This document shows, one piece after another, positions 410 through 11,944 of a stretch of 13,240 nt of DNA. The notes beneath the pieces are model-generated. The model was not told where the DNA came from, searched no databases, and saw only the letters and a list, made by a program, of their open reading frames with translations. How positions within the stretch are numbered: position 1 is the stretch's first letter; each line of letters opens with the position of its first letter. The stretch lies in the NCBI GenBank assembly GCA_963745075.1, contig CAVUWV010000029.1, forward strand, positions 1-13,240. Reading direction: 5' to 3'. Position numbers and translations under genes: made by a program. This stretch comes from Candidatus Hydrogenedentota bacterium. GTDB lineage: Bacteria; Hydrogenedentota; Hydrogenedentia; Hydrogenedentales; SLHB01.

Positions 410-447
410 TTAATTCGTAGTCTGTCCCTGAATTTCCCTGAATTTCC
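410..447 (+). repeat. RAYT-associated terminal motif (type A) with 10-bp tandem duplication
   Basis: TTAATTCGTAGTCTGTCCCTGAATTTCCCTGAATTTCC. The first 27 nt are identical to 10050-10076. CCCTGAATTT occurs twice (426-435, 436-445). Confidence 0.9.
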
Positions 448-508: not shown

Positions 509-1420
509 TTATGTGCAAGCAGCAGTGCTTCTTCGTATTTCGTGTGCTGTGAATTCAAAGAAATCTGCAAGCGCCAGTGACGGCGGAGCGCCGAAGGGAA
601 AAACATCATCTCGAGGGCTATCGCTTTTGATCGCAGCACACCATGACTCCAGAAGGTCACAATAGATCACTAGGGCTGTGCCAGGGATATCTGCCCTATC
701 GGTTACGACGTAGGCGGGCGGGGCCGCAGAGACCACCACCCAGAGACGAGCATCTATGTCGCCTATTTTTCTGTCAAACTCGAATAGGAATACAGCAAAT
801 CTTCCGCGCTCCCCACATCCAAAATATCTCCGAACTATCTGGGGACACCAAGCAAATTTCGACAAAAACGCCTCTCCTTGTTCAAGCAGCGTCTGAAAAT
901 CTTTTGGAACTTTGCCATATCCGAAGGTGTCAGAGATCGGCGACAGATTCTTATAGTCGAAAGAACACGTTTTGACTCTTCCGCTACCACTTCCCCATCG
1001 CCTATACCGAGTCTCTCTACAAATTTGTTGAATCCCTTCGAACGCGTCCCGGACTACCCCACGAGGAGAACGTCCGCTGCGCGGTGTCGCAACCGACCAA
1101 TAAAGGTCCCAAGCCTCAAGCACCCGGCCCGCCTTCAGCAGTGCATCGGCTTTCATTACGATACTACCAGTATCATTCGGGTCGCGGGCCAGGACTTCAT
1201 TCATGGAAGCTATGGCATCATTGTATCGACCTAGGTCCAGTTCGCACGTTGCCTTAAACCTCCACATCTGGAGTGAGTCAGGGTCCAACTGCAAGTATTC
1301 GTTCATGGATCTTACTAAGTCATCGTCAAACGGCCGCGTGAAGTAACCACACTTGCATCGTAGACGCAAGCGCAGCCGTTTCCTACGTAAAACTATATAC
1401 TCCAAGAACCTCCTAAACAT
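509..1420 (-). CDS. TPR-repeat protein with C-terminal DUF4826-like domain; candidate immunity protein
   Basis: 303-aa ORF. TPR-like helices (LGRYNDAIASMNEVLARDPND; KADALLKAGRVLEA). C-terminal LWVVVSAAPPAYV...ALVIYCDLLESW recalls DUF4826-like proteins (from memory, unverified). Visibly AT-richer than the core genes. Start uncertain. Confidence 0.6.
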   Translation of the reverse strand: MFRRFLEYIVLRRKRLRLRLRCKCGYFTRPFDDDLVRSMNEYLQLDPDSLQMWRFKATCELDLGRYNDAIASMNEVLARDPNDTGSIVMKADALLKAGRVLEAWDLYWSVATPRSGRSPRGVVRDAFEGIQQICRETRYRRWGSGSGRVKTCSFDYKNLSPISDTFGYGKVPKDFQTLLEQGEAFLSKFAWCPQIVRRYFGCGERGRFAVFLFEFDRKIGDIDARLWVVVSAAPPAYVVTDRADIPGTALVIYCDLLESWCAAIKSDSPRDDVFPFGAPPSLALADFFEFTAHEIRRSTAACT

Positions 1421-1530: not shown

Positions 1531-1748
1531 TCAATGATGCGAAATGTTCCGAATTATCCTAATCCCGGCAACGAGAAGATTAAACCCTACGCAGTCCAAC
1601 ATACATTTTGCATAGCGTGGTTTACTTTTGCACAGACCGTGGCAACTTCTCGGTGGTGGTCGATTCGAATCCGGATCTGGATTACCAGGTTGACCAACAG
1701 TCTCGACTACAATCGGCTTCACGGGACAAGTGACGGGCTCGTCCCGCC
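1531..1748 (-). pseudogene. 5'-truncated Cys/Pro-rich ORF tip, possibly a polymorphic-toxin C-terminus
   Basis: The frame RRDEPVTCPVKPIVVETVGQPGNPDPDSNRPPPRSCHGLCKSKPRYAKCMLDCVGFNLLVAGIRIIRNISHH* starts directly after the motif half TGTCCCTTTATTTCC and lies upstream of 509-1420 on the same strand. No family recognised. Confidence 0.35.
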
Positions 1749-1778
1749 GGAAATAAAGGGACATCCATGATAGGTATA

Positions 1779-1784
1779 AGTCAA
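1779..1784 (-). promoter_or_regulatory. Outward-facing -35 box of the IS circle-junction promoter
   Basis: TTGACT near the right end. Joining the ends gives TTGACT-18 nt-TAGCAT with an extended -10 TG (-10 at 3349-3344). Confidence 0.7.
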
Positions 1785-2017
1785 GAGGCAAAGCGGGCGG
1801 TTTGCCATTCCGTCGGTTGGGCGTCTTTGGGGCGAAGAGGTAGCTGATTGTTGGGCGGAGACTTAGGCGGCCTGGGCGTAGTGCGGTGCCGAGAATGGGT
1901 AGCTTGCGTATAGCTCGTCGGAGGCAGCGCAGTGCGACCGGGCCGCCGTCGTTCGGGCAGTACTCCCCCTTCGCGGTCCGCGGGTTGGTTTCGCGCGCCG
2001 CGCCATCACGTCGTTTC

Positions 2018-2204
2018 CGGTTCTCCGTTTTGCTGACGAGATAGGTTCTCGCAACCAGACATCCATTTGCAGATACCACGTTGACGGCGTGGGTCCGATG
2101 TTTGCGTTTGGGAGAGCCGCCGCGCCCGAAACAGACTACGGGGGTATCGGGATTTGTGTCCCTTGCCCAGTCCCTAACGGCGGGATACGGCGGCAGGAGA
2201 ACCG
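2018..2204 (-). ncRNA. Predicted bridge/seek RNA of the IS1111-type element
   Basis: Closed by a 9-bp stem CGGTTCTCC/GGAGAACCG. In order it contains AAGGGACA (2164-2157), CGTAGTCTGT (2140-2131), GCAAACA (2105-2099) and ATGGATGT (2066-2059), matching target right, target left, donor right (6/7) and donor left. Internal stems GCCGCCG/CGGCGGC and CCCGA/TCGGG. Boundaries approximate. Confidence 0.75.
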
Positions 2205-2218
2205 TATGTGAAAACCTC

Positions 2219-3244
2219 CTACACCTCGGGCGCTATGAAGGGCTGCCCGGATTTGTCCACGGCCAACAGATAGGCCACCAGTTTGCGCGCCACGGCCAGG
2301 GTCGCGCGGTTCTTGTTGTATCCCCGAACGATGGCTTGCTCGCGTATGCGCGTCAAGTGGGCGTGTTTGGACGGCGCCAGCTTGGCCGCTTCGATGAGAA
2401 TGGACTGTAAGTGGGGGTTGCGTTCTTTGGACAAGGGCATGCGCCACTGTTTGTCGCCCGACTCGTGTTGGGCCGAGCACAACCCGCAGTAACTCTGCGC
2501 GCGCCGGATGTTGGAAAAGCGATGCGGGTCGTCGATCTCGAGGGCCCAGGTCAGCGCCGTAACCTGGCCCACGCCGCCCACCGACTGGAGCAGGGTCACC
2601 CGGTCGCACAAGGCGGCATGCCGGGTCAAGACATCGAGCAAGTGGCGCTGGGCGGCCGTGAACAATTCGAGATTGGTCCGAGTCATGCGTAACAAGTTGA
2701 CCACCGACGGTGGCACGTCTTCCAGGCTGTCCACCAGCTCGGAGAAGTACTTCTTTCCGTGCAGTTTGGATTTGGCGTACTCCACGCCCGTCTCCATCAG
2801 AATGCCCGACGCCTTGTTCTTCATGCGGGTGGCGTGTCCGACCAGGAAGTTGCGGTACCGCAGAATCCGCCGTAACTCGCGCACCTCGGCCGAGGCCATG
2901 TAGCACGAGGGAAACAGGTCGGCCCGCAGCAGGTTGGCCAGCATTTCGGCGTCGATGCGGTCGTTCTTGTTCTTCGACAGCGCCTTGAGCCGGCGCGGAT
3001 GTCCCACGTGAAGCTCGGCTGCGTACGGCAACAGGGCGTCGTAGACCCAACCGGTAAACAAGGTCGCCTCGATGCCCGCGACGAAGGGCCGCGTGCGAGA
3101 GGTCGCAAACGCCACCAGTTCCTCCTTGCGCGCACCGATCGTCCCCCGATCCGCCACGTTGCCCAACGGGTCCTTCTCGCAAAACGCAATGGTCCGCTTG
3201 TGGATGTCCAGGCCGATGAAGTGATACGCTTGAGTCGTGTTCAT
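2219..3244 (-). CDS. IS110-family DEDD recombinase/transposase (IS1111 type)
   Basis: 341 aa. RuvC-like DEDD residues in FIGLDIHK, GIEAT and KNDRIDA. C-terminal LLQSVGGVGQVTA...YCGLCSAQHESG with the conserved Ser, and AVARKL. RBS GAAGGAG upstream of the ATG. Confidence 0.96.
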   Translation of the reverse strand: MNTTQAYHFIGLDIHKRTIAFCEKDPLGNVADRGTIGARKEELVAFATSRTRPFVAGIEATLFTGWVYDALLPYAAELHVGHPRRLKALSKNKNDRIDAEMLANLLRADLFPSCYMASAEVRELRRILRYRNFLVGHATRMKNKASGILMETGVEYAKSKLHGKKYFSELVDSLEDVPPSVVNLLRMTRTNLELFTAAQRHLLDVLTRHAALCDRVTLLQSVGGVGQVTALTWALEIDDPHRFSNIRRAQSYCGLCSAQHESGDKQWRMPLSKERNPHLQSILIEAAKLAPSKHAHLTRIREQAIVRGYNKNRATLAVARKLVAYLLAVDKSGQPFIAPEV

Positions 3245-3349
3245 GGGAAGTCTCCTTCTGTGATGGGCGCTCCATACGCCCCTTGCACTTAGTGTAAGGC
3301 AGACTTCCCACTTTTCTTTCCTTAGTGACCTCGCAACCTATGCATGCTA

Positions 3350-3364
3350 ACAGACTACGAATTA
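3350..3364 (-). repeat. 5' half of a type A RAYT motif containing the RAYT stop codon; the 3' half is at 1749-1763
   Basis: TAATTCGTAGTCTGT on the minus strand, identical to 411-425 and 10051-10065, and cut at TGT by the IS. Confidence 0.85.
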
Positions 3365-3921
3365 CCCACTTCTCCGCCGTCTTTCTCCGTCCGTTTGCGT
3401 TTCCGGCCTCGTTTGGCAGGACGCAGGAGGCGACCGAGCAGGTTCTCCAGCTGGACCACAAACTGGCTCCCGCCGCAGGGGCGGCCAGTGCTGGTCTGGC
3501 GGCGAATGCGATCGACGGCATCGGGGTCCTCCTCCACACGAAGCCATTGCGCCCAGTCCTCGATAACGCCGGGCGGGGGAAACTCCTTCGATAGTAGCGG
3601 GTCCGGCTGGGTTTGGCAAGGGATTCCGGCTTCGGAAGGGACAGACCCCGTGTTTCGCTCCGAAGACTGCGCGAAAGACGGGGTCAGTCCCACGCAATGG
3701 GCGCGCGCGCTGGACCAGGGGTGGTCTTCGGCCCGGTCGACCATTCCCGCGCGGACGGGGTTGCGTTCGACGTACCGGACCGCCGCCCACAAATGGGCTT
3801 CGTCCAGCACGCACGAATAAAATCGCCCCTGCCACACGTGGCCGCTCAGTTGGGTGCGCGTGTTGAAACGCATGGCGTAAACGGTGTGCGCGTCGCGCAA
3901 CGCGTGGGCCCGAGATTCCTC
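3355..3921 (-). pseudogene. 5'-truncated RAYT lacking the HUH motif, with an in-frame palindromic insertion
   Basis: 3757-3921 is a near-identical repeat of 1-165 (EES.AHALRDAHTVYAMRFN...RYVERNP). It continues WSSARAH...TGRPCG...LLRPAKRGRK...GNS*. No NHIHL or start upstream; only a decayed RYP*RHATGG trace to about 3950. Confidence 0.88.
3638..3691. repeat. 54-bp REPIN-like hairpin, copy 1, inside the RAYT pseudogene
   Basis: GGGACAGACCCCGT...ACGGGGTCAGTCCC, 51/54 identical to 11891-11944. Confidence 0.9.
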
Positions 3922-5492: not shown

Positions 5493-6638
5493 TTACGAGA
5501 ACAAACGTTTTCGCGCCACCAAGCCGGCCATCAGCAAACCGAAGAACGCGCCCAGTACCCACACGCGACGATCTGCAAAAAACCCCCGCTTTGGTTTTGC
5601 ACCCGATTCCGCGGCACGTGCGGGCGGGTCGTCGTTGCCGGCGCCGACCGGGTCGACGTTGGCAAGGCTTGCCATCTGACGGACCTCGCCCGTATTCCCC
5701 TCGGCGAGGAGGGGGGCCACGCCGGGATGGGAATCCTCAGGCGCCGAAGCCGGAGTGCCGGTCTCCGTGGATCCCGAAGCGGCGGGCGCTGCACCGGTTG
5801 CACCGTCTTCCGTCGCCACCGGTGAAGGGATTCCCGCACGCTTCTGTGCGAATTCACGGGCCATTCGATCCAACTGAGACAACCGCGATGCGGCGTCATC
5901 CGATCGGGACGCGTTCAAGGCCCGGGATCCTGTCGGGCGTCCCGTATCCAACACGCCCGTTGGAACGGTCGACTTCCCGTTCGATGCCGGGGACTGGGGA
6001 TTCGACACACTGGGAACCGTTGTATCTGTGGGCTCCGAAGCCGGCGCCGTTGTATCGTCCGTTGGAGGTGCGGGCGGTTCGTTTTCGTCGGTCGGGGTCG
6101 GATCCGAACCCGGTTCCGTATTGGGCGGATTGTTTGGATCCTGGGGATTCGAGTCATCGGCAGGCGACGCACTCAATTGCAGGGTGGCGGAACTGCCTCG
6201 CGATGCGATGGTCTGGCCGGCCAGCGAGGCGAGTGTTGTTCCGTCGATTGCAATATTCGTTTCCGCTGCGGCGGCGCCGACACGGCGGAGCGAGATGTCC
6301 GCGATCTTGCCGTTTTCCATGGTGGACTGGTTCAGGCCGAACATCATGACGACATACTCGCCGGGAGAAGTCATGTTGTATTGCACGCCCTTGCCGGCGG
6401 CAATCGCTGCGTCGCCGGTGCGGACGCCGTTGGGCACCAGAACGGAGGGATCGTAATGAAAGGTGAAATCCAGGGCGGCGACTCCGGAATCGACGCTCCC
6501 CTCCAAATAGACGGGTACGGTCACTGCATTTCCCTGGACCGCCGGTGTCCCCACACTCAAGACCCCTTCACCCAGGGCTGAAGGCAGGGCAAATACCAGC
6601 AGTACGCCCAGTGCAGTTACTTCACGGTTTACTCTCAT
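5493..6638 (-). CDS. Membrane-anchored surface protein with a cohesin-like domain
   Basis: Signal peptide, then a cohesin-like beta sandwich (VTVPVYL...VAALDFTFHYDPSVL...GKIADISL), a long Pro/Thr/Ser/Asp linker, and a C-terminal TM helix with a basic tail (RKRLFS). Confidence 0.8.
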   Translation of the reverse strand: MRVNREVTALGVLLVFALPSALGEGVLSVGTPAVQGNAVTVPVYLEGSVDSGVAALDFTFHYDPSVLVPNGVRTGDAAIAAGKGVQYNMTSPGEYVVMMFGLNQSTMENGKIADISLRRVGAAAAETNIAIDGTTLASLAGQTIASRGSSATLQLSASPADDSNPQDPNNPPNTEPGSDPTPTDENEPPAPPTDDTTAPASEPTDTTVPSVSNPQSPASNGKSTVPTGVLDTGRPTGSRALNASRSDDAASRLSQLDRMAREFAQKRAGIPSPVATEDGATGAAPAASGSTETGTPASAPEDSHPGVAPLLAEGNTGEVRQMASLANVDPVGAGNDDPPARAAESGAKPKRGFFADRRVWVLGAFFGLLMAGLVARKRLFS

Positions 6639-7585: not shown

Positions 7586-8767
7586 TTAGAGGCCCGAACG
7601 CAATACCGCATCGCAGATGGGACCGCGAGACTTGTGTCCTTTCAGGACCAAATGTCCGTAATTGTGACTGCCGCGCAACATTCGCACGATCCAGTTCAGG
7701 GCGTTGTTGGACTCGTTGAGGTAGGGATTGTCGACCTGCCGCGTGTCGCCGAGACATATACACTTCACGTTCTCGCCCATCCGGGTGAGCAGGGCGCGAA
7801 TCTCGTTGCGCGACAGATTCTGGGTCTCGTCGATGATCACGACGGCGTCCTCGATATTCATTCCGCGGATAAAGGCAAGGGGCAGAATCTCGAACTTCGC
7901 GGGGTCGTATTTTGAATGTTCGGCCTTGGGATCGGCGAAGATCTTGTTCGCGGGGCGCAAACCGTGAAGTTTCGCCGTCAGGCCGTGCAGGTAGCTGATA
8001 TAGGGTTCCAGCTTTTCCGCCACGTCGCCGGGCAGAAACCCCATCTTGGCGCCAATCTCGATCATGGGTTTGAGCACGTAGATCTTGTTGAACCGCTTCG
8101 TTTCGAGCGTGAGATAGAGCGCCGCCGCAAGGGCGAGAAATGTCTTCCCAAAGCCGGCTTCGCTTTGCAGCGTGACCAGATCGATTTGTTCGTTGAGCAG
8201 CAGCTCAAACGCGAGGTTCTGATAGACGGTCCGCGGCTTAACCTTCCAGACTTCGTGTTCGTACTCGATGACCCGGGGGCCATCCGAACTATGAAACAAG
8301 GGTTTGCCTTCGTGCCACTTGAAACTGTTCGGGTAGGGTTCTTCGCCGTCCGTGACAAACCCGGTGTATTGCTGGGAATCCGATTCGAAGGGGTGGGAAC
8401 TCTTAAATTCCTGGCTGCGAACGCCGCTGAATTCCGCGATCAATTGGAGAATGCGATCGTTGGTGACCAGGATGGGATCGTTCAATCCGCCGCTCTTGAT
8501 TTCTTTGAGGATCTGGAGGTCGACGTTGGGAACCAGCGGCTCACTGCCGTTCTGGCCGATGATGGTGATTGTCTCGAAGTTCTGCCGGATGGAGTCCACG
8601 GCTTTCGCGACCAAATGCTGCACCCGAGGCTCTTTCTTCAGCTTGTCCAGTTCCAGAAGGACGTGGAATGGTATGCTTACCGAGTTTTCCTCGCCATTGC
8701 GCAATATGCGAATGCAGTTTGGATCCTCGAGCAAAGCGTTGGTGTCGAGAACGTAGCTCTTTTTCAT
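7586..8767 (-). CDS. PhoH-family ATPase with N-terminal PIN domain (PhoH2/YlaK-like)
   Basis: Start MKKSYVLDTN after GGAGG. PIN motifs VLDTN, VLLELD and VTND. Walker A-like SEAGFGKT, MGFLPGD, FIRGMNI, IIDETQN, LGDTRQVD. Confidence 0.93.
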   Translation of the reverse strand: MKKSYVLDTNALLEDPNCIRILRNGEENSVSIPFHVLLELDKLKKEPRVQHLVAKAVDSIRQNFETITIIGQNGSEPLVPNVDLQILKEIKSGGLNDPILVTNDRILQLIAEFSGVRSQEFKSSHPFESDSQQYTGFVTDGEEPYPNSFKWHEGKPLFHSSDGPRVIEYEHEVWKVKPRTVYQNLAFELLLNEQIDLVTLQSEAGFGKTFLALAAALYLTLETKRFNKIYVLKPMIEIGAKMGFLPGDVAEKLEPYISYLHGLTAKLHGLRPANKIFADPKAEHSKYDPAKFEILPLAFIRGMNIEDAVVIIDETQNLSRNEIRALLTRMGENVKCICLGDTRQVDNPYLNESNNALNWIVRMLRGSHNYGHLVLKGHKSRGPICDAVLRSGL

Positions 8768-9838: not shown

Positions 9839-10060
9839 GGGTTCGCCCAGGCCAGCACGACCAAGGACTGGTCCGAGCGGCTTCACGTGGAGGATGGCTA
9901 CGATGCCGTTGACCGCATTCGCTATCAGACCAACATCACGCCACCGGTGTGGCTTGTGGGATAACTGGGACATTCCCTTGACCGCCTCCTCCGCCCCGCC
10001 AGGCGCGGCCGCAAGCCCAAGCGAACCGGTGGAAACGGCGAGGAAGAGTTTAATTCGTAG
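9839..10060 (+). pseudogene. Decayed RAYT C-terminal remnant
   Basis: Frame 2 reads KDWSERLHVEDGYDAVDRIRYQTN...*LGHSLDRLLRPARRGRKPKRTGGNGEEEFNS*. This aligns with EDWAQWLRVEEDPDAVDRIRRQTS...LLGRLLRPAKRGRKRKRTEKDGGEVGNS* of 3355-3900. Internal TAA at 9962. Confidence 0.85.
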
Positions 10061-10091
10061 TCTGTCCCTGAATTTCTCTCTGAATTTCTCT
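10050..10091 (+). repeat. RAYT-associated terminal motif (type A) with 12-bp tandem duplication
   Basis: TTAATTCGTAGTCTGTCCCTGAATTTCTCTCTGAATTTCTCT. CTGAATTTCTCT occurs twice (10068-10079, 10080-10091). Contains the RAYT stop codon. Confidence 0.9.
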
Positions 10092-10965: not shown

Positions 10966-11052
10966 TGAGTTTCGATGCGTTGAGGGTACGACTCTGACGC
11001 GACTCCTGATTCGCTGGGCGGAGGCCGGGCCGGATCAAAATAATTAAATAAT

Positions 11053-11462
11053 TGGGGACAGTAACCATTTATTGCGGCTGGACCTGGGCGGGTGGTTCGA
11101 GGCGACGCCCGCCTCGAACTGGAAGGGCACGCTCACAGCCCTCGCCGATTCCGGCCCCAAGGTGGACCTCCTTCGCCTGCACACGCGTACGGGCCGTCCC
11201 CTCGGCGGCGATTCGCTTCTCAGCAAGGTGGAAACCTACCTCGGCCGCCGTGTCCGCGCCATCCCGTGCGGGCGCCCCCACGGCAGCAAAGACACGTTCC
11301 CGCGCAAGCGACGGTAAACGAAACCGTGCGCGAAACCGATTGCGCATTTCGGGCGCCAGTAGTAGTATTGCAAAAGGATCACGGATGCACGGGCCCATCG
11401 GAATTCACGCACCCGGCATCGAGCGTCAAGGAGGGGACTGCAATAAATGGTTACTGTCCCCA
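11053..11462 (+). mobile_element. Non-autonomous RAYT derivative with 23-bp perfect inverted repeats (type B motif)
   Basis: TGGGGACAGTAACCATTTATTGC (11053-11075) and GCAATAAATGGTTACTGTCCCCA (11440-11462). Tandem duplications at the outer ends: AAATAATT x2 (11038-11053) and TCCCCATTTAT x2 (11457-11478). Confidence 0.8.
11072..11317 (+). pseudogene. C-terminal fragment of a second RAYT subfamily
   Basis: LDLGGWFEA...VDLLRLHTRTGRPLGGDSLLSKVETYLGRRVRAIPCGRP matches the RAYT C-terminal pattern (compare RQTSTGRPCGGSQFVVQLENLLGRLLRPAKRGR). It begins at the IR. Confidence 0.8.
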
Positions 11463-11481
11463 TTTATTCCCCATTTATTCC

Positions 11482-11886: not shown

Positions 11887-11890
11887 GAGA

Positions 11891-11944
11891 GGGACAGACC
11901 CCGTGTTTTGCTCCGAAGACTCCGCAAAAGACGGGGTCAGTCCC
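11891..11944. repeat. 54-bp REPIN-like hairpin, copy 2
   Basis: GGGACAGACCCCGTGTTTTGCTCCGAAGACTCCGCAAAAGACGGGGTCAGTCCC, 3 differences from 3638-3691. Confidence 0.9.

Follow-up and report, generated by a model that had tools for sequence, protein, structure and literature searches.

The closest described systems for the locus analysed here are RNA-guided insertion sequences of the IS110 family. According to the parts of the cited accounts used here, IS621 has handshake bases that come after the right guides and, once the top strand has been exchanged, form pairs with the other substrate (PMC11208158), and it releases a single-stranded circle (10.64898/2026.08.31.748434); for CazIS110-1, the strand released as a single-stranded circle is the top strand (10.1101/2025.10.25.684509). 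Elements of the IS1111 family form a junction promoter when their ends are joined (PMC11187229), and their sub-terminal inverted repeats are usually near-perfect and 11-13 bp long, with a range of 7-17 given in PMC11208160. The window, i.e., the whole stretch of DNA analysed here, is an entire contig of 13,240 bases. As judged from its sequence, the element that it carries (Table 1) is an IS110-family RNA-guided transposon with an IS1111-type layout, the guide-RNA part of which is a further member of the system described in 2024.

Extent of the element and its recombinase

The ends of the insertion sequence are regarded as real because a second copy (G000:C10, 99.9% identity across 1608 bases) diverges from the window precisely at TGT on both sides and because an exact uninterrupted (empty) site was found at G000:C31:201448(-). 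A third, 90%-identical copy (G000:C23:101906-103064) sits in a second repeat class and has unrelated sequence breaking up its RNA; at G000:C15:145532-145877 there is an orphan 3' fragment with altered donor guides and an intact hairpin. The nearest relatives with a named source were from Candidatus Hydrogenedentota; a close relative was absent from 401 genomes of the phylum of G138, and a peptide scan of viral contigs found no relative of the recombinase. The 34 viral matches to a 16-base RNA pattern were rejected; the five inspected were chance-like and tblastn showed the recombinase in none. Read mapping found no junction contig, in data of a kind that is unable to reveal expression.

The preliminary description of this DNA had proposed an intact IS110-family recombinase with a guide RNA encoded downstream. 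The recombinase was borne out by the presence of two Pfam domains, PF01548 (the DEDD RuvC domain) and PF02371 (the C-terminal Tnp domain with the catalytic serine), and by an alignment that places all five catalytic residues in register with those of IS621. Several features of the IS1111 group were also found: a long non-coding region lies 3' of the gene (455 bases, versus 108 bases 5'), the top-strand match comes ahead of the bottom-strand match on the RNA (2175-2170 before 2140-2131), and the element extends past its inverted repeats by 7 bases on the left (3352-3346) and 3 bases on the right (1766-1764). The inverted repeats comprise nine pairs and one bulge, and their 6-bp perfect part co-changes among relatives, the right repeat changing together with the left in L082/L083 and in a Desulfocapsa element. 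In the C-terminal domain, the GL and SG of the IS1111 consensus GL-P----S(t)G were found and the P is replaced by S; the layout is therefore named IS1111-type, without formal filing of the element in the IS1111 group.

Table 1. Features of the element and its surroundings (coordinates in the window; strand in brackets)
Feature	Position	Remarks
Empty target repeat	410..439 (+)	Beside Y1 (RAYT-like) transposase gene; another at 10050-10079
Whole insertion sequence	1761..3352 (-)	1592 bp including both TGT copies; from second copy and empty site
Right sub-terminal inverted repeat ACCTATCAT	1767..1775 (-)	3 bases inside end
Predicted junction-promoter -35 box TTGACT	1779..1784 (-)	TTGAC conserved among relatives
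Small conserved hairpin	1787..1806 (-)	Directly ahead of junction -35 box
Second hairpin, candidate single-strand origin	1866..1949 (+)	Folds on strand antisense to recombinase
Invariant core of second hairpin	1890-1898 CGAGAATGG, 1914-1923 CTCGTCGGAG (+)	
Bridge/seek RNA region	2018..2204 (-)	9-bp closing stem; target arm, donor arm and third hairpin join at multi-branch loop
Left-donor guide AUGGAUGU	2059..2066 (-)	8/8 to right end; then invariant CU (2058-2057), candidate handshake bases
Right-donor guide GCAAAC	2100..2105 (-)	5/6 here; 6/6 as UCAAAC in L198/L201
Left-target guide CGUAGUCUGU	2131..2140 (-)	Then invariant UU (2130-2129), candidate handshake bases
AAGGGACA	2157..2164 (-)	5' arm of target-arm apical hairpin, paired in consensus fold; not guide
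Right-target guide AGGGAC, corrected	2170..2175 (-)	Pairs with top strand of GT and right flank; unpaired in consensus fold
DEDD recombinase gene, 341 aa	2219..3244 (-)	Catalytic D13 E59 D95 D98 S262
Leader segment	3296..3310 (-)	Pairs with ribosome-binding site and start codon (3257-3242)
Left sub-terminal inverted repeat ATGCATAGGT	3336..3345 (-)	7 bases inside end; one-base bulge versus right repeat
Predicted junction-promoter -10 box TAGCAT	3344..3349 (-)	TG ahead after joining; 18-base spacer

The ends also carry predicted signals for expression. In the small hairpin ahead of the putative junction promoter, both sides of the stem change among relatives and the loop is conserved, as judged by eye. 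The leader segment near the left end is predicted to sequester the element's own ribosome-binding site, the modelled duplex being stronger for cognate than for swapped sequences (-22.9 versus -17.6 kcal/mol; 0/20000 permutations, 13 elements). Complementarity was also seen between the leader arm and a segment lying 30-115 bases in from the right end (window ~1790-1880), with -31.6 for cognate and -27.4 for swapped sequences (P=0.0006), the window being the weakest case at -18.8; pairing of the leader arm with the right end could free the ribosome-binding site in transcripts that cross the junction. Most relatives have a TAnnnT hexamer 3' of the leader arm. A crude scan of 1740-3400 found no promoter-like site.

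As the co-variation described below shows, the guide RNA of the window element is directed to a repeat frequently found beside Y1 (RAYT-like) genes: for the first repeat class, seven of the 13 empty sites lie <=700 bases from a Y1 transposase match, and 4/19 of the second class do so, in a genome with 16 Y1 matches. Repeats of several classes that contain CTGTCCC occur at 1-439, 3355-3921, 3637-3691, 10050-10079, 11047-11075, 11440-11468 and 11890-11944. Many CTGTCCC-containing repeats adjoin Y1 (RAYT-like) genes or remnants thereof, and the repeat class targeted differs from relative to relative. Other genes of the window encode a TPR protein, located downstream of the element (509-1420, minus strand), a cohesin-domain protein (5493-6638, minus strand) and a PIN-PhoH fusion (7586-8767, minus strand). 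At L008, two different IS110 elements lie in tandem; the IS110-family elements at L502 (~1640-1700) and L008 (1240-1300) are beside sites that resemble those of the attC type.

Guide RNA, core dinucleotide and exchanged strand

All four strings that the preliminary description had listed as guide-like were found on the minus strand at their places, inside the 9-bp closing stem (2204-2196 paired to 2026-2018). The fold of 2018-2204 had a z of -3.25, and none of 200 shuffles was equally good. In 3000 dinucleotide shuffles of this region, the chance of the guide matches was 0 for the 10-mer CGTAGTCTGT (2140-2131), 0.0007 for ATGGATGT (2066-2059), 0.003 for AAGGGACA (2164-2157) and 0.18 for the 6/7 donor match of GCAAACA (2105-2099), which is weak alone. 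Co-variation was assessed by tabulating flanks against RNA segments in 17 elements with 49-100% protein identity; as the relatives are not independent, every P value given below is optimistic. C10 and L198 were excluded from the co-variation counts as near-duplicates, L186 and L187 are without a left end, and the G012 row joins ends from two contigs. The table leaves out L259, whose flank is cut, L262, which has no RNA, and L001 and C23, in which the 3' end is unusable.

Three of the proposed guides were upheld by this comparison. The left-target guide co-varies with the left flanks (63 matches versus 33.4 permuted, 0/20000 permutations, 13 elements) and the right-donor guide with the left ends (42 versus 35.7 permuted, P=0.0005, 13 elements); the left-donor guide, with its full match in the window, shows a single co-change with the right end, in the Desulfocapsa plasmid element. 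The right-target guide had to be reassigned. The string originally proposed for this role, AAGGGACA, gave 35 matches versus 34.3 permuted (P=0.46) and a mean fit of 3.6/8, and is a stem arm; a second AGGGAC (2175-2170), which also fits the right flank, had been overlooked. This segment, ending GGAC, gave 61 matches versus 51.9 permuted (P=0.0016, 15 elements) and fits the right flank at 6.1/7 on average, with a maximum of 9/9; matching 9-base runs are found in L201, L263 and L187. Fits were poor for the left-target guide in L163 (5/9) and L083 (6/9) and for the right-target guide in L260 (3). It is hardly credible that the four guides are exactly those first listed, around a TGT core: AAGGGACA does fit 8/8 in the window (chance 0.003), but co-variation is absent at its position, which is paired in the consensus fold, and this RNA segment, unchanged in the C10 copy, there meets a different flank. 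As a natural case of reprogramming, four changes at 2135-2138 switch the left-target guide to the second repeat class in ~90%-identical relatives, which are contigs of three RNA-labelled assemblies that do not allow transcription to be inferred.

It had further been expected that the guides would sit in loops and co-vary with their targets. In a consensus fold of seven RNAs, the first expectation held for the target guides, the corrected right-target guide and the left-target guide facing each other across an internal loop, and failed for the two donor guides, which are paired together at almost invariant columns; co-variation was found for the left-target, corrected right-target and right-donor guides, with one co-change for the left-donor guide. 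A single-sequence fold pairs the guides with one another (mean unpaired 0.2-0.4). Taken together, the sequence comparisons make it very probable that this is a guide RNA, in which the two target guides (right, then left) are followed by the two donor guides (right, then left), with GT as the core.

The core had been proposed as TGT (or GT), with TGT included in all four guides. The inclusion of TGT in all four fails and GT is favoured, since the corrected right-target guide stops at GT and the base that follows it, U in 17/17 elements, cannot pair with the T preceding GT; both top-strand guides are able to pair through GT in all rows, and GT is the most likely core from these alignments. The left-target guide is followed by UU and the left-donor guide by CU in 17/17 rows, and the first base after GT is T in the donor and C in the target in every row possessing it. 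The UU suits the bottom strand of the donor, with one pair here and two where the left end begins TT, and the CU suits the bottom strand of the target, with a pair plus wobble; no such fit to the donor is seen for the bases that follow the right-target guide. The same pair-plus-wobble pattern is described, on the opposite strand, for wild-type IS621 in the relevant part of PMC11208158. These candidate handshake bases are invariant, which places them outside the reach of co-variation. Because the loop order is reversed compared with IS621 and because the non-cognate substrate is the one that suits the invariant bases following the left guides, exchange of the bottom (antisense) strand first is somewhat favoured, by analogy with IS621. 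A search of the literature, as far as its texts were available, found no strand assignment for IS1111 elements. Activity of the guide RNA and recombinase is presumed from IS621 and ISEc11.

A second hairpin shared with other insertion sequences and microviruses

In the 3' non-coding end, the block at 1866-1949 is conserved far above its surroundings and forms a second hairpin, whose 34-base core is common to insertion sequences and single-stranded phages (microvirus contigs). An alignment of 33 copies had 87.6% of cells paired, 69 double changes and a covariation of 0.444 versus 0.108 when shuffled (0/500 shuffles equal), figures that are inflated by the picking of copies through the core pattern and a stem judged by eye. 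In the window, the plus strand folds with z = -3.46 and the minus strand with z = -0.11. Single mismatches in the variable stem, counted as G-T against A-C on the reverse form, stood at 17:2 in 27 copies and 20:4 in 21 others (37:6 pooled; 9 versus 1 per element in each set), at 54:34 in a looser count (P=0.04) and at 5:2 within five microviruses. This asymmetry indicates that just one strand of the hairpin folds. A pairing of the hairpin loop with the left end was considered and dropped; the partner of the left-end segment concerned is the ribosome-binding site, and in other elements the loop is free to vary.

The strand that folds follows the layout of IS110 elements. The folded form is on the sense strand in 7/7 IS110 elements with a long non-coding end 5' of the gene, some of them kin, of which L483 alone shows the guide order of IS621 (L484 has a right-target match and no clear left-target match). 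It is antisense in the 3'-type IS110 elements, i.e., the window family, L260/L264, L047, L501 and L502, although for L047, L501 and L502 the long 3' end was called by eye and guides were not located. The position of the hairpin varies: it comes after the RNA in the window and precedes it in L260/L264, and L502 has it 5' of the gene, the folded form being antisense in spite of this placement. In IS3-like elements, the hairpin is found in either orientation. Some relatives without the core hairpin have other long hairpins in the same place (L223 at ~400-470; the 3' ends of L163 and L198), which are possibly signals in an exchangeable slot.

The core pattern was found in 17/135 genomes of the window's phylum (control 0) and, for the phylum of G135, in nine genomes out of 301 (one site in the reversed control). 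A hairpin model, whose matches here were not picked by eye, matched 20/151 genomes of the phylum of G137 and 3/151 of that of G138; all three matches in G000 belong to the window's IS family. When 24 model loci were examined, 14 adjoined a transposase, five were at contig ends and five lay mid-contig without a transposase. Pfam assigned neighbours of the hairpin to IS110, IS3/IS481-like, IS256, ISL3, IS30-like, Y1 and integrase genes, the hairpin lying near a Y1 gene in L275 and after an integrase in L271, and L489 has it beside an IS630-like transposase. Many core-pattern sites, often at contig ends, have no transposase in reach. Copies without a nearby transposase were seen at L272, L273, L276-L278, L280-L283, L472, L479, L482, L486 and L499, and transposase-less copies are possibly small non-autonomous elements or relics. 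The model had no match in L163, L185, L198, L223, L258, L259, L261 or L263, and only two of ~90 distant IS110 loci had the hairpin. Matches at L269 and L503 were rejected as chance-like.

Among viral contigs, the hairpin was found in five small contigs that carry microvirus Rep, scaffold or capsid genes: four among 36 viral matches and one further contig among 31 matches of another scan. The count of 36 against 1 in the reversed control overstates the signal, as two phage coding sequences (one a terminase) account for 18 of the 36. In all five, the hairpin lies between genes, with CGAGAATGG...CTCGTCGGAG, the folded form, on the coding strand; in four of the five, it lies upstream of the Rep gene. 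A looser viral scan with 79 matches found no microviruses beyond these five, and with filters off the model matched none of four annotated gokushoviruses, phiX174 or G4, so that the hairpin is rare among microviruses. Searches by blastn found nothing in plasmids and only short chance matches in phages, and Rfam gave nothing at the gathering score and one chance match at E 1.5. None of the titles and abstracts found in literature searches described the hairpin, which, with Rfam as the motif catalogue covered, is provisionally considered undescribed.

These observations suggest a life cycle in which the RNA-guided recombinase would exchange the bottom strand first and release an antisense single-stranded circle, on which the hairpin would fold and act as a host-recognised single-strand origin (a priming site for primase, primosome or RNA polymerase). 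Second-strand synthesis from the hairpin would then give a double-stranded circle with the junction promoter. Microviruses package the coding strand, and the hairpin is read as a priming signal for the second strand because it is on the strand predicted to be released and on the coding strand of single-stranded phages. The hairpin thus folds on a strand that is single-stranded in the life cycle, this strand being a predicted one for 3'-type elements. Even so, a priming role has about an even chance of being correct on these sequence patterns, and the whole chain, from guide RNA through bottom-strand circle to hairpin origin, is likewise evenly balanced. Several observations count against an origin, among them the following: the hairpin is optional and absent from many relatives; the IS630 family, which is cut-and-paste, is represented among its neighbours (L489); and in DDE copy-out elements the donor already supplies a 3'OH primer, according to the part of 10.1101/2023.06.07.543989 used here. 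The wider proposal, that a single undescribed single-strand origin is common to several copy-out IS families and some microviruses and that its strand in IS110 elements follows the excised strand (top in 5'-RNA, IS621-type elements and bottom in 3'-RNA, IS1111-type elements), may hold, with slightly worse than even prospects.

Its patchy distribution could also mean that the hairpin is a passenger repeat, i.e., a mobile palindrome or landing site without a role in the cycle of an otherwise ordinary IS1111-type bridge-RNA element. The many relatives without it, its differing positions and the several loci without a transposase would fit this explanation. However, the core is invariant while the stem is rewritten by compensatory changes, the folded strand tracks the IS110 layout type, and the hairpin is kept in compact microvirus genomes and, in G000, is confined to this IS family for all three matches, which makes a passenger unlikely.

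It is similarly unlikely that the hairpin works at the RNA level, whether in processing, in stability or in antisense or translation control. The folded form is mRNA-sense in the microviruses and in 5'-type IS110 elements, the placement of four of the five microvirus copies upstream of Rep would agree with such a function, and the G-T asymmetry suits RNA equally well; yet, relative to the transposase, the strand that folds is the antisense one in the window family, L047, L260, L501, L502 and several IS3/IS256/ISL3 elements, and neither the crude promoter scan of 1740-3400 nor Rfam gave a match. A single-stranded DNA signal with another job, such as protection, packaging, recruitment of a protein (SSB, helicase, HUH nuclease) or an Frpo-like promoter, would share the strand logic of an origin and could draw on the copies near a Y1 gene (L275) and after an integrase (L271), and the GAGAAT hexamer resembles a -10 box. 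For a promoter, no -35-like partner was seen and in the window the hairpin is far from, and opposite to, the sole gene; signals of this kind as a group appear improbable.

Comparison with known systems

The guide RNA alone is another natural example of its kind, useful in that all four guides, set around a GT core, have been reprogrammed among its relatives. The single-stranded circles of IS110 elements leave open how the second strand is gained and which strand IS1111-type enzymes move first, and the 34-base core of the hairpin allows a direct test. If the proposal is true, the hairpin would be the missing second-strand start of bridge-recombinase circles and a genomic read-out of the excised strand. 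If it is an origin, it could be a part with which bridge-editing systems are made to yield more circles, and some uncultured microviruses would have in it a candidate origin for their complementary strand.

As described in the parts of PMC11187229 used here, the seekRNAs of the IS1111 family (ISEc11, ISPa11, ISKpn4, ISPst6) resemble that of the window in having the non-coding region 3' of the gene and the top-strand match first. Elements of this family also share the 7-base left and 3-base right extensions, a protein of similar size (330-350 aa in their case) and the junction promoter, and ISPa11, like the window element, targets a repeat. The window element differs from them in its short and bulged inverted repeats, the absence of the P of GL-P----SG, the readability of both donor guides, one of which co-varies, and a 455-base 3' end with an extra hairpin. 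Among plasmid matches, no named element above ~33% identity was seen, the unannotated Desulfocapsa copy being an exception.

With IS621, as presented in the portions of PMC11208160 and PMC11208158 drawn on, the element shares four guides, a two-base core, the DEDD plus serine residues and handshake-like bases, the recombinases themselves matching weakly in sequence (E 1e-7). Unlike in IS621, the RNA is 3' of the gene, the guide order is reversed, the core is GT rather than CT and the handshake-like bases follow the left guides (PMC11208158 for the last). Copy-out by IS621 and CazIS110-1 yields a single-stranded circle, which would have to gain a second strand, but of the top strand (10.64898/2026.08.31.748434; 10.1101/2025.10.25.684509); the word primase is absent from both texts, and no cis priming signal was found in the sections considered here.

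The core words of the hairpin are absent from the Frpo/ssi table in the part of PMC11541004 used here. In contrast to the G4 and phiX174 origins, which the model does not match, the hairpin described here is carried by insertion sequences. Like the complementary-strand origins of G4 and phiX174 and the ssi and Frpo sites of plasmids (PMC11541004, in the part cited), it is intergenic and, as read here, lies on the strand that a single-stranded replicon packages or transfers.
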